A stretch of DNA of 64,000 nt from Sedimentisphaerales bacterium (GTDB lineage Bacteria; Planctomycetota; Phycisphaerae; Sedimentisphaerales; Anaerobacaceae). Below are positions 10,023 to 53,301 of this stretch, piece by piece (position 1 is the first letter of the stretch; each line of letters begins with the position of its first letter). Under the pieces are notes generated by a model. It was given only the letters and a program-made list of their open reading frames with translations. It was not told where the DNA came from and made no database searches. Made by a program: the position numbers and the translations under genes. Location of the stretch: NCBI GenBank assembly GCA_963708075.1, contig OY970194.1, positions 1,120,001 through 1,184,000 on the forward strand. The letters are read 5' to 3'.

Positions 10023-10030
10023 AAAAAAGA

Positions 10031-10129
10031 TCGGCCGGGTTGCCCCACACACAACCAAGCGTCCGCTTATGGCTGCTCGGTTCCCCGCCTGACCAGGTTC
10101 ACGGGCTCGGCTTGCATGGGACCCGGCCG
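10031..10129 (-). ncRNA. ffs: Signal recognition particle RNA (small bacterial SRP/4.5S)
   Basis: Minus strand has GUCAGG-CGG-GGAA-CCG-AGCAG domain IV motif, terminal CGGCCGGGU/ACCCGGCCG stem followed by U-run, and lies upstream of dnaX-recR. Confidence 0.92.
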
Positions 10130-48856: not shown

Positions 48857-49363
48857 ATGACTGCGAAGAGAGTATCGACGCGGTTGGCTTTTGCGTTGGT
48901 GCTTGTGGCGGCAATGGGGGCTTGGGCCATGGGCGAGACCCGGCAGGTCAACACCACGCCGGTGTGGTACCGGATCTGGACCCCCAATCTCTATGGCCTG
49001 AACACGTATCATTACCTGGGTCCGATAGCGCCGTACGCCCCCGGCTTTTTCCCGCTGGACGGCTGGTACGGCGGGTACTATCCGCCGCTGTTTGAGCCTC
49101 CGCGGTATAGTCCGCTATTGCCGGGCTCGGTTCCTGCGCCCTGGCAGTATCGGGCACCGGATTGGTATTACCGCCAGCCGTACGCACCCTATGTGTATCC
49201 GCCGCCGTTTTACGGGGGCTACTACGCACCCAATGCGCACCAGTGGTGGTATTACCGCTACTACAACCAGCCCTGGAGTGGACCAGGCTGGCGCAGCTAT
49301 CGCGGCATGCGGGATCCCCGGCCCAATCCCCAAGCCCCAACCGCAGTTCCGCGCAGCCGGTGA
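48857..49363 (+). CDS. Secreted Tyr/Pro/Gly/Trp-rich low-complexity protein
   Basis: GAGGTG RBS, signal peptide, YYPP/GGYY repeats. Confidence 0.7.
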   Translation: MTAKRVSTRLAFALVLVAAMGAWAMGETRQVNTTPVWYRIWTPNLYGLNTYHYLGPIAPYAPGFFPLDGWYGGYYPPLFEPPRYSPLLPGSVPAPWQYRAPDWYYRQPYAPYVYPPPFYGGYYAPNAHQWWYYRYYNQPWSGPGWRSYRGMRDPRPNPQAPTAVPRSR

Positions 49364-49469: not shown

Positions 49470-50136
49470 TTACAGCGCGTTGCGTCTGCGAAGATAACCC
49501 ACGAGAACCCATGCCAAGAGCGCCGAGCAGGATCGCCCCGGGAGCGGGGACTTGATAGATCATGTTCGGACCATCGAAGAAATCGGGAGCCGTCGGACCA
49601 TACGTCTGTGTCGGCCACGTAGGTGCCGGGTCCGAGCTCGTCGCAGTCCACACGGACTGTACGAACTGTACCCCATCACCATTGAACGTAGGTCCAGGTC
49701 CGCCAAGGTTACTATTGTGCTCGGGATTGGCGTCCGAGAAGCCGTACCCGACGATGGTGTACTGCCCGACCGGCAACGCCAGAGGACTGATCGGCTTGAA
49801 CCAGTAGTTGCTCGCCGCATCGAACCACATGCCCGCATCGCCCGCTGCAAACGTCATCGAAGCGATCACGTTTTGCTGCGCGTCGAACAGGACGGTCGTG
49901 AGCGGTGCCGCACCGGCTGCCAGGCCATCAGCTCCACTGTCGTATATGCCGAGTTCCAGGACCTGGAAACCGGAGGTAAGGACGTCGAAGGTCCAACCCA
50001 CACCGCTCCAGCCCTGGTTCCCGGTGGTCGTATTCGCCACATGCATGGTCGTAGGAACTGCGCTTGCCGACATTGGAAGAGCGGCCAGCAAGGCTGCGGC
50101 CACGACCGCCAACATCAGCTTGGTGCATCTTTTCAT
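49470..50136 (-). CDS. PEP-CTERM-like (VPAPGA) sorted surface protein; frameshift near 49505
   Basis: Signal peptide; removing one base gives VPAPGAILLGALGMGLVGYLRRRNAL*. Confidence 0.85.
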
Positions 50137-50277
50137 ATCATCCTCCTACAACTCAAACGTCACTCCAAGAAAACGCTTCCGTGCCCCGTTCATGTATGCA
50201 TCTGCTGCCCAAGGGACACGCACTTTTCCCCATCAGGCTCATCGCGCGTCAAACCACACTTCTCCAGGCAGAAGCGT

Positions 50278-50441
50278 CCGACCTGCTCGGCCCGCAACTG
50301 GCGGCCTTTCTCATGCTGCCGACCGGCCGTTCCCAGACCCGGCCTATCCAGCCGCTAACAGGTATGGACACACGGAGGCTCTGCAAAATGCGCAATGGCT
50401 GATGGGGACGCTGATATACGCGCCAAGTTCTCGCAGGTCAG
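50278..50441 (-). ncRNA. Candidate structured leader RNA, copy A
   Basis: Strong similarity to 51421-51585; closing stem CUGACCUGC/GCAGGUCGG; internal UGUCCA/UGGAUA stem. Confidence 0.55.
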
Positions 50442-50446
50442 CCCGT

Positions 50447-50475
50447 AGTATAGCCTCCCGGCCTCGACGTGTCAA
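50447..50475 (-). promoter_or_regulatory. Sigma70-type promoter TTGACA-N17-TATACT
   Basis: Near-consensus boxes, 17-bp spacer, same position in copy B. Confidence 0.75.
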
Positions 50476-50556
50476 CAGGAAAAACCAGTTTTTTTTGCAC
50501 TTGGGCCGGCCGCGTGACTGAATCATGTGCAGGCCCGGGAAGGGGAAATTTGGAGG

Positions 50557-50592
50557 AAAAAAAAGGCCGGCAGTCCCTGGGGACGACCGGCC
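50557..50592 (-). terminator. Intrinsic terminator downstream of 50639 gene
   Basis: GGCCGG...CCGGCC stem followed by U8 on minus strand. Confidence 0.75.
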
Positions 50593-50638
50593 GTGAAGAT
50601 TCAAGCCTGCCAGGTACAGATGCAGTCACCTGGGCTTC

Positions 50639-51280
50639 TTACAGCGATCTTCGCCTGCGGAGCCAGCCGATCAGGCAAGTGCCTATGGCACCGAGAAGGA
50701 CAGCGCCCGGGGCCGGGATGGGAGTTCCCATTGCCAGGTTGTCGATTCCCGTGTTGATGCGCTCGCCACCCACGCTGGTCCAGTGGATTTTGGTGATCGG
50801 CTCATCGAGCACGATACCGAAGAACCACTGGCCTGCCGCACGCCCATCATAGAGCGTGACAGCAGGGGTAGGATCGCTGCCGTAGAACTCCACGACGACA
50901 TTTCCCAGGCCGTTGAGGTACGCATCATAACCGACCGCCGTATAGGAAAACGCACTCAGATCGATTGTGAAATCCTCAGGTCCGGTACCCGTCAGGATGC
51001 TGCTGGTCGTCAGCGGAACGCCGAAGTTGGTGTAGCCCGGAGAGGCCACCCAGACGTTGTTCGTTGGTGGTGTCCCTGCGTACGTGACGCCGTTACTCGT
51101 GAACGACGCCAACGCCGTGTCCTTCGGGACCACAGCCTCGAAGTCTTCGACTTGCAGGATGTTCACTGCGGCGTCGAAAGAGGCGTAGTCCATGTAAAAA
51201 GCAGGGACTGCCAAGCTTACGCTGCTCAGCGGCAAAAGGACCGCCGCCAGTGCCAGGCAAGCTGTTGTCAAACGTCCCAT
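50639..51280 (-). CDS. PEP-CTERM-like (IPAPGA) sorted surface protein
   Basis: AGGAGG RBS, signal peptide, IPAPGAVLLGAIGTCLIGWLRRRRSL tail. Confidence 0.88.
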   Translation of the reverse strand: MGRLTTACLALAAVLLPLSSVSLAVPAFYMDYASFDAAVNILQVEDFEAVVPKDTALASFTSNGVTYAGTPPTNNVWVASPGYTNFGVPLTTSSILTGTGPEDFTIDLSAFSYTAVGYDAYLNGLGNVVVEFYGSDPTPAVTLYDGRAAGQWFFGIVLDEPITKIHWTSVGGERINTGIDNLAMGTPIPAPGAVLLGAIGTCLIGWLRRRRSL

Positions 51281-51420
51281 GTAATCCTCCTAAAGCTCAA
51301 TGTTCAATGTCACTCCAAGACACAGTCTCGGTATCTCCTCTATGTATCTGGCAAAGAGACACCCTGACCCCACATCCAGCCTGTCGCGCAGTAAACCAGT
51401 GCTTTCCCAGGCAGAACCGT

Positions 51421-51585
51421 CCGACCTGTTCGGGCCGCAAGCTGCGGCCTTTCCCCTGCTGCCGGCCGGCCGTTCCCAGACATGGCCCGTCCAGCCGCTA
51501 ACAGGTGTGGACGCATAGAGGCTCTGCACGATGCGCAATGGTTGATGTGGACGCGTGATATATGCGCCAAGTCTTCGCAGGTCAG
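51421..51585 (-). ncRNA. Candidate structured leader RNA, copy B
   Basis: Closing stem CUGACCUG/CAGGUCGG; CGUCCA/UGGACG stem; GGCCGC/GCGGCC hairpin. Confidence 0.55.
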
Positions 51586-51590
51586 TCTAT

Positions 51591-51619
51591 AATATACCCC
51601 GGGGGCCCGGAAATGTCAA
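51591..51619 (-). promoter_or_regulatory. Sigma70-type promoter TTGACA-N17-TATATT
   Basis: Near-consensus boxes with 17-bp spacer. Confidence 0.7.
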
Positions 51620-51831
51620 GTAAAAAGCGGACCATCTTCCCGCGAGGGCGTACGACAAGATTGTGGCAGAGCGAGGATTAGGCTCTTGGGTGGCAGCGTC
51701 AAGCGGCAGCTTGGCGATGGCGTTCTTGGGATGCGCCTCCACCATCGCCAAGGCCTGCGGCCTTGACGATGCCACCCGGGTCGAGTGCCACTTTCTTGTC
51801 GTACACCCTCCCGCGAATCGTCACCTGGCCG

Positions 51832-53249
51832 TCAGTACTCCCGGTTTTTGAGAATCCCCGGCTGGGGCAGGGGGTACTTGCCGTCAGGGCCGGCGGGCAG
51901 GGGGGCGGGGGAGTCCATCGCCAGCTTGTCCACGTCGGGGGCGAACTCCTCCTCGCTGTTGAGCATCTCGTCGAATGTCACGATCTGCCCGGTATGGACG
52001 GCCCGGCGGGCCATGGCCGTGACCAGGGCGGCCTCTGTTCCTCGTTTCGTCTCGTTGAAAGGCTTGTCATTGCGAATGGCGTCGATCAGCTCATCCCACT
52101 CAAGTTGGTAGGGATTCGGCTCCGGCTGCGGGAACGACCAGGCGAGGTCCTCTTTCGCGAAGTTTTGTCCTTTATATATGCGGCATTTGCCGGGCGTGTG
52201 CATGAAGGTGGAGATCACGGCCGAGCCCCTCGTGCCGTGGGCGTAGCTGGCGAACTCCTCGTGACAGCCGGGCATGTGGCGGTTGTTGAGGAACAGCTTG
52301 GCCCCATCGGCGAACGTGTACTCGACGTCGTAGTGGTCGAAATTCTGGTCCACGGCATCGCCGCGATAGCAGCGTCCGCCCGCGCCCTGGGCCCGGACCG
52401 GCCAGGCGTCCTTCATCCAGCAGCACTCATCGACGTTGTGCGCAACCACGTCCTGGAACAGCCCGCCGCTGGCCCACAGAAAGCCCAGATAGTTGCGGAC
52501 CTGCCAGAGCAACTCGCTGATATTGCCCTGCCTGGGCCCCGCGAATCCCGCCGGGCCCTGCTGGCGGTAGGTTCGCATCATGGTGATGTCGCCGATCTGG
52601 CCGGACTTGATCCGGTCGTAAAGCTCCCAGCGGGCCTTGCAGTGCCGGCACATCAGTCCCACGCCCACCTTGAGGTTCTTCTTCACCGACTCCTCGCCCA
52701 GTTGCAGCATCTTGCGCGTGATCGGCCCGTCCACGACCACGGGCTTTTCCATGAACACATGGATGCCCTTGGCGATCGCATAGCGGAAATGCACCCAGCG
52801 GAACGCCACCGGCGTGGCGAAGATCGCGACATCGCCCGGCCGCAGGCAGTCCATCGCCTTTTGATAGGCGTCGAATCCGAGGAACCGCCGCTCCGGCGGC
52901 ACGTCGAGCTGGCTCGCCTGATACCCGCATCGACCCAAGTATCCGCCGACCCGCTCGTCCGCGGCGCGCTGGCCGCCTCGATCAGCCCGTCGTAGCTGCG
53001 TTTGATCCGGTCCTCGAACACATCCGCCATCGCGAAGAGCTTGACGGGAGCGACCCTGGTGGCCATCGCATTGGCCGCCGCCCCCGACCCTCGCCCCCCG
53101 CAGCCGACGAGCGCGACCCGGATCGTCTCATCCCCAGCCGCATACACCCGCGGCCCGACCGCCGCCAGAAACGCCGACCCCGCCGCCACCCGACCCGTGC
53201 CCTTCAAGAACTCCCGTCGTGACGTGCCCCGTGCATCGCTACCGCTCAT
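51832..53249 (-). CDS. Tat-exported Gfo/Idh/MocA oxidoreductase, frameshifted near 52930
   Basis: SRREFLK Tat motif, LVGCGGRGSGA, GFDAYQKAM, HVFMEKP. Confidence 0.88.
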
Positions 53250-53261
53250 AACAACCCCTCG

Positions 53262-53301
53262 TGATTTACGATTTACCATTTACGATTTACGATTTACCAT
53301 T
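53262..53301. repeat. Heptamer tandem repeat (GATTTAC/CATTTAC)n
   Basis: gtgatttacgatttaccatttacgatttacgatttaccattt. Confidence 0.85.

Follow-up and report, generated by a model that had tools for sequence, protein, structure and literature searches.

Duplicated structured leader upstream of two PEP-CTERM-like genes in a Sedimentisphaerales bacterium

The window, a stretch of 64,000 nucleotides from contig OY970194.1 of a Sedimentisphaerales bacterium, carries two tandem genes on its minus strand, each of which lies behind its own promoter and a long leader. The gene transcribed first and its leader are referred to as copy A, and those that follow as copy B.

51591..51619, minus strand: sigma70-type promoter of copy A, TTGACA-17-TATATT, with +1 inferred near 51586
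51281..51586, minus strand: full leader A, ~305 nt
50639..51280, minus strand: gene A, 213 aa, with a signal peptide, a domain of unknown function, and a PAPGA (PEP-CTERM-like) tail
50557..50592, minus strand: intrinsic-terminator-like hairpin and U run, 3' of gene A
50447..50475, minus strand: sigma70-type promoter of copy B, TTGACA-17-TATACT, with +1 inferred near 50442
50137..50442, minus strand: full leader B, ~305 nt
49470..50136, minus strand: gene B, with a signal peptide, a DUF4082-like lead, and a PAPGA tail

Because a terminator-like hairpin follows gene A, the two genes are separate units. Their proteins share little, as the preliminary description of this DNA had noted, and the PAPGA tail is the only common part. 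Against the PEP-CTERM tail model, the tail of gene A scores 14.2 bits, below the curated cut-off of 20.7, and the genes are thus termed PEP-CTERM-like. The genome contains three exosortase matches over the cut-off, and two filters retrieve 37 and 57 PEP-CTERM-like gene candidates. The tail of gene B is frameshifted in the window by one extra base near 49506-49507. This base is absent from a metagenome contig, L044, that is ~96% identical with the same gene order, and from contigs of two sequencing runs, which makes an assembly error or a strain-specific lesion the probable cause.

Several features surround these genes. Upstream, a Gfo/Idh/MocA oxidoreductase (window 51832-53279) seems split between two frames near 52900, and a palindromic REP-like repeat lies directly upstream of promoter A at 51646-51810; among the matches listed, its ~90-nt core has well over 100 BLAST matches in the genome. 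On the plus strand, window 48857-49363 encodes an exported, Pro/Tyr/Gly-rich protein of 168 aa that is convergent with gene B and has no Pfam or NCBIfam match. The sole Rfam match in the window is a bacterial small SRP RNA at 10030-10128 (minus strand).

Closely aligning non-coding copies had been described at 50278-50441 and 51421-51585 of the minus strand, and this alignment holds: BLAST finds 82% identity between leaders A and B over 216 nt (E 3e-55). Within the first ~185 nt, 155 of 181 columns are identical, as are 8 of 17 in the promoter spacer and 76 of 113 from the 3' end of the core to the start codon; core identity exceeds that of both the spacer (p 5e-4) and the 3' remainder (p 2e-4). 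The distance from the core to the ATG is 141/142 nt, as claimed. The ~165-nt unit that was originally proposed is indeed duplicated, but it does not end at 165 nt, as weaker similarity reaches the start codon. Comparison with L044 and with the gene A orthologue of a congener (L011, 67% protein identity) indicates instead that the entire ~305-nt leader forms the unit. Both copies begin 5-6 nt past a near-consensus sigma70 promoter, and the reported TTGACA-17-TATA(C/T)T arrangement is present ahead of each, with 11 of 12 consensus positions matched; two promoters of such quality were found, versus 0.7 +/- 1.0 in shuffled sequence. Searches by BLAST, profile, and covariance model found no third copy anywhere in the genome, a single contig of 7.5 Mb.

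Structure prediction on the transcribed strand divides the leader into a 5' domain and a 3' module over the Shine-Dalgarno (SD) sequence.

51575..51585, minus strand (50431-50441 in B): promoter-proximal motif YUGACCUGCGA, the 5' strand of the closing stem P1
51550..51568, minus strand: small 5' hairpin GGCGC/GCGUC, also in B and in the leader of L011, where an A-U replaces a G-U
51370..51550, minus strand: outer rod of A, 51544-51550 with 51370-51376 and 51533-51538 with 51384-51389
50228..50407, minus strand: outer rod of B, 50401-50407 with 50228-50234 and 50390-50395 with 50242-50247
51411..51527, minus strand: helix X (GCAGAG with UUCUGC), an alternative to P1, with a counterpart in L011
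51421..51513, minus strand: inner domain of A, comprising stem 51508-51513/51488-51493 around ACCUGUUAG, a GGCC stem, a GGCCGC hairpin, and CAGGUCGG
50278..50370, minus strand: inner domain of B, with the same layout as in A
51330..51363, minus strand (about 50181-50220 in B): hairpin H2, covarying in seven leaders
51286..51321, minus strand: helix H3, a U/C-rich strand with the SD AGGAGG (SD 51286-51291; 50142-50147 in B)

The 3' module is the best-supported structure in the leader, as judged from aligned sequences. Across seven related leaders, which represent about four to five independent lineages and from which the structure itself was predicted, 90.6% of cells in H2 and the SD helix are paired, and double-sided changes occur in 7 of 20 pairs. 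Only 0-1 of 500 shuffles reach as high a value, and every slid register is lower. In L044 (1938-2028, minus strand), leader A departs from the window at 23 sites within the 85 nt next to the SD, whereas the flanks diverge by 0-4%, and both hairpins are retained; this looks like a swapped segment.

The 5' domain is dominated by the outer rod, which encloses the inner domain and pairs nt ~38-55 with nt ~199-218 in all four copies at -22.9 to -32.4 kcal/mol. Shuffled partners pair as well in 0-1 of 500 cases, with strands that were picked after the fold was known. The 3' strand of the rod has diverged and still pairs in each of the four copies; moreover, once one alignment gap is moved, A and B differ in the rod by one double change, A-U/C-G, and in the L044 B copy one pair is broken. 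The minus strand has 22 shared helices of at least 6 bp, versus 8 on the plus strand. Full leaders A and B fold with z-scores of -2.3 and -1.3 relative to shuffles; the 165-nt core by itself is no better than shuffles (z -0.04 and -0.89). A structured leader that is specific to the transcribed strand and absent from Rfam is thus supported on sequence grounds.

The evidence is different for P1 (CUGACCUG/CAGGUCGG), which was originally reported to close the domain. The pairing exists as described; however, it is invariant, and it is displaced in the full leader. P1 is unchanged in all three copies that include it and so contributes no covariation. Folding predictions give it a probability of ~1 for transcripts ending at nt 168-182 and of 0 after nt ~222, it is predicted only in transcripts under ~185 nt, and the P1-closed form is less stable than the competing rod by 10-16 kcal/mol. 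P1 and the outer rod have no bases in common and, in these models, may coexist as a pseudoknot. The GCAGAG pairing had been offered as a pseudoknot or alternative fold; because the extended helix overlaps P1 bases, it is an alternative fold and not a free pseudoknot. Of the two copies, only A forms its 8-bp GCAGAGCC pairing perfectly, and B needs a bulge. The CAGGUCGG strand (51421-51428) can pair with either the 5' end or the ACCUGUU loop. Between the CAGGU strand and this loop, 7 bp can form with one A-to-G change tolerated, but 43-51 of 500 shuffles are as good, which makes this pairing weak.

Covariation adds little within the inner domain. The internal stem around ACCUGUUAG does contain the double-sided change that was reported, but covariation is not above chance: one double change is observed among shared helices versus a null mean of 1.3-2.4, where the null relocates the same substitutions on the unedited alignment, which misses the double change of the rod. 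Invariant loops carry no information at 85% identity. A test in which paired columns varied less (p 4e-5) was circular and was set aside. No terminator lies inside the leader. Also, no conserved upstream peptide is common to the two leader copies, and this candidate function was rejected.

Relatives of the leader indicate that it is modular. In L011, promoter and helix X are retained along with ~70 nt at the 5' end and ~85 nt at the 3' end of the leader, but the middle is shorter, different, and devoid of the CAGGUC strand. Only the last ~120 nt are found in two more leaders of the source genome, near 448.7 kb and near 2,133.4 kb, both of which follow a shared small gene. The latter two belong to paralogous units of a promoter and a small gene, STAS-like by eye, at 448610-449150 (minus strand) and 2132900-2133435 (plus strand). 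These units share the 3' leader module and the signal peptide with gene B and lead into different proteins, one of which has another C-terminal sorting-like tail.

The full element is narrowly distributed. Complete copies were found only in this genome, in L044, and in short variant contigs from two of four sequencing runs, and the 5' part is absent in 7 of 8 gene A homologues and 5 of 5 gene B homologues examined. The check for copies across relatives that was suggested at the outset came back empty, as BLAST and covariance model R1 found no full copy in 60 relatives. With laxer filters, R1 also found none in five congeners without a known positive. These searches have low sensitivity at the divergence of L011, which BLAST missed and to which R1 gave an E of 4.2. 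The core pattern with two mismatches matched 4 of 300 genomes of the order, fewer than its reversed control, and the 5' pattern matched 9 of 250 family genomes, of which the two best are not homologues; R1 found nothing in the nine loci. The exact core pattern had 0 matches in 185,579 species genomes, a set that may leave out the source genome itself. The 5' pattern had 22 there, of which 21 are promoterless and inside long open frames and 1 is an L011-type leader. Among metagenomes, six stretches matched, with only one contig real; among viral contigs, all 27 matches were due to chance, and no relative of gene B was found either. Plasmids and phages yielded no copy, and none of 20 weak BLAST or pattern matches and 59 PAPGA upstream regions carries the element. 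Rfam 15 has no match over the core at the gathering threshold, and at E<=10 the best matches lie outside the core and far below threshold. The leader is real, probably functional, and undescribed, with a narrow range.

The 5' strand of P1 recurs, without its partner strand, at +1 of other PAPGA-gene leaders. Within the genus, YUGACCUGCGA has 11 matches with at most one mismatch, 3 of which are the design set; of the 8 independent matches, 4 lie ahead of PAPGA-tailed genes, in leaders without the domain. The motif is nevertheless rare, occurring after just 3 of the genome's 341 consensus promoters and at 1 of 59 sampled congener PAPGA genes. Because it is not enriched between genes, a genome-wide operator was rejected. 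Two congeners have another conserved non-coding element of 250-400 nt after the same promoter and motif (L109 ~1130-1545 and L099 1-248, both minus strand); it repeats CCUGCG words, is convergent on the 3' end of a PAPGA gene, and has no Rfam match, and the L109 element ends in a tRNA-like T-loop minihelix. A CRISPR-like repeat-spacer array stands behind a consensus promoter in congener G013 (L093 1501-1900).

Selection on the leader is likely, to judge from strain comparison. Between the window and L044, the 5' 220 nt of the leader have 7 differences in 414 positions versus 33 in 423 for third codon positions (p 3e-5) and 9 in 286 for other nearby non-coding DNA (p 0.21). Six of the seven are C/U exchanges. 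One column is T in both L044 copies and C in both window copies, a pattern suggestive of gene conversion or of a tolerated site.

From 20 listed sequencing runs, including 8 of RNA, we compared four (three RNA, one DNA). The element is covered in one of the three RNA runs, by low-depth contigs that give neither strand nor level. In this run, X5, contig 17 bridges leader B and gene B (49925-50373, 4 differences), and there are at least three further leader variants, with, for instance, 15 differences over 121 nt or 10 over 77 nt; one variant contig has 88% identity across its leader portion and 81% across its gene portion. One X5 joint is read as a copy with a shortened GGCC stem region. Coverage by RNA-run contigs ends before the promoters; in one run, contigs cover the 50240-50491 bins and none covers 50492-50575, which is weak evidence. 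RNA runs X9 and X12 contain other parts of the stretch and lack the element, and DNA run X14 contains 50267-50417.

We propose, giving the idea an even chance, that the element is a lineage-restricted, modular, structured 5' UTR of PEP-CTERM-like surface-protein mRNAs that acts on translation and stability. A strong promoter leads into a ~305-nt leader without an internal terminator, as seen in the sequence, and action would come after transcription has started. By default, the SD helix would dampen translation. The 5' 220 nt would fold first as the P1-closed form (P ~1 up to ~180 nt) and then as the rod, the formation of which would free the 5' motif and the CAGGUC strand. The likeliest role for the inner domain would be to serve a protein or RNA partner, either as a platform for binding or as a timer of folding. 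Such a putative partner might bias refolding from P1 to the rod and in this way set translation and mRNA lifetime.

The alternative that survives best, albeit one we consider somewhat unlikely, is that the leader is a residue of duplication and gene conversion. Under this explanation, the promoter and leader were copied to a position ahead of the second gene and homogenised, folding only stabilises the mRNA, and the inner domain is non-regulatory. There are just two copies, in tandem, and within each strain the paralogues share one column; moreover, the core has no excess covariation and an MFE z of about 0, and the congener orthologue L011 lacks the middle. However, identity falls sharply at the promoter spacer and past nt ~185, and yet the diverged 3' strand of the rod pairs in four of four copies. 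The three or more further variants in an RNA run, and the stronger conservation of the leader than of third codon positions, also argue against a mere residue.

The preliminary description read the element as a structured leader controlling surface-protein expression and as a candidate new riboswitch. The first reading stands insofar as the leader is structured, strand-specific, and outside Rfam; the riboswitch is decidedly unlikely. In that model, a ligand would stabilise the P1-closed domain, with the ACCUGUUAG and UCUGGGAA loops as its pocket, block the rod, and open the ribosome-binding site. Two exclusive folds in silico and an SD-sequestering helix agree with this idea, as does a precedent in gene context, the c-di-GMP riboswitches beside the PEP-CTERM genes of Methylophaga GP59 (PMC12530212). 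Folding predictions provide further, uneven agreement: when P1 is forced, the SD of copy B becomes unpaired (0.86 versus 0.07 free) and that of the L044 B copy opens partly (0.36 versus 0.01), whereas copy A shows no P1-SD coupling (0.28 versus 0.27). Nevertheless, the core has no Rfam match by gathering score or at E<=10, and the element is restricted to one narrow lineage, with no aptamer conserved across distant taxa with covariation. Core covariation is at chance, the loops are uninformative at their level of identity, and no intrinsic-terminator expression platform was found in the leader. P1 is invariant and displaced, and its 5' strand recurs at other promoters without its partner. The riboswitch is left unsupported.

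A related idea, to which we assign a similarly slim chance, is a new class of RNA switch with two states, set by whether the CAGGUC strand pairs with the 5' end or with the ACCUGUU loop; a second messenger or a dedicated UGACCUGCGA-recognising factor would control the choice. If true, this switch would toggle surface-protein synthesis in sediment planctomycetes, with the UGACCUGCGA motif common to several surface-protein leaders.

An element that acts as DNA is very improbable. Here, a looping repressor would use the +1 motif and, 155 nt downstream, an inverted copy of it as operators, or the rod would be a relic of a miniature mobile element or single-stranded DNA hairpin. Several PAPGA promoters do have the motif at +1 (it precedes such genes in 4 of its 8 independent matches with at most one mismatch), and the rod resembles the Rhodopirellula-1 hairpin by eye. 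However, the scarcity of the motif after consensus promoters (3/341) and at congener PAPGA genes (1/59), and its lack of enrichment between genes, speak against operators. Pairing is 9-15 kcal/mol better for the transcribed strand as RNA, and no target-site duplication, attC-type boxes, or integron integrase above cut-off was found. Finally, release of the 5' 170-220 nt as a stable small RNA, either trans-acting or serving to titrate a factor, is extremely improbable, because, despite a compact closed domain from +1 and the other long non-coding element after the same promoter motif in L099 and L109, no terminator follows the domain, and RNA-run contigs continue into the gene with no high depth over the domain.

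We return to the modular 5' UTR in comparing the leader with known systems. No published description of the element was found in the literature searched; the main text of Weinberg 2017 (PMC5737381) gave 0 matches, and its supplement, which possibly holds unlisted motifs, was outside the search. In Proteobacteria, Haft 2006 (PMC1569441) describes PEP-CTERM genes with a PrsR/sigma-54 DNA motif and long upstream regions, and expects further unknown upstream motifs. The likeness lies in single-gene PEP-CTERM units with >200 nt of upstream non-coding DNA (PMC1569441). The difference is that PrsR/sigma-54 control uses a DNA enhancer and a sigma-54 site upstream of the start, whereas the present leader is conserved, transcribed, and preceded by a sigma70-type promoter. 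The leader offers a concrete candidate for PEP-CTERM gene control outside Proteobacteria, although its narrow range limits the weight of this case.

In Methylophaga nitratireducenticrescens GP59, four c-di-GMP riboswitches flank PEP-CTERM genes (PMC12530212). Both systems have repeated structured leaders beside clustered PEP-CTERM genes; however, the leader here has no RF01051 match and is three times longer than a c-di-GMP riboswitch. A genome-wide RF01051 search was empty, but its positive controls were also silent.

The Rhodopirellula-1 motif, a long imperfect hairpin of planctomycetes with a variable apical loop, invites comparison with the rod, as the words CAU..GCGC / GCG-AUG are similar by eye (Weinberg 2010, PMC2864571). 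No Rfam accession is listed for this motif. Yet Rhodopirellula-1 spans 60-120 nt versus ~180 nt for the rod and has terminal AAC/GUU pairs, a 5-nt spacing, a single bulge, and a 1-71-nt loop that the rod lacks. Membership was rejected on these missing by-eye features and on 0 sites in a descriptor scan run without a positive control. Rhodopirellula-1 may be attC-like. Integron attC sites are marked by R boxes and an integron integrase; the leader has no R boxes, 0 of 6 integrase matches are over cut-off, and an attC site was rejected, as was a miniature mobile element. Leaders controlled by CsrA carry several ANGGA motifs in loops; this candidate was rejected with 0 motifs in A and 1 in B, although csrA is present. 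Some leader words are reminiscent by eye of ZTP, pistol, and cobalamin RNAs, for which Rfam gives no backing.

A further likeness is to translational attenuators, in which a helix between an anti-SD strand and the SD shows compensatory changes and is accompanied by an upstream alternative fold. An SD-sequestering helix with compensatory changes and a predicted upstream alternative fold are present here too, with the difference that no leader peptide is common to the copies. By analogy, the leader, a member of no family tested, works like a translational attenuator, and its covarying SD helix and swappable upstream domain make it a testable design.
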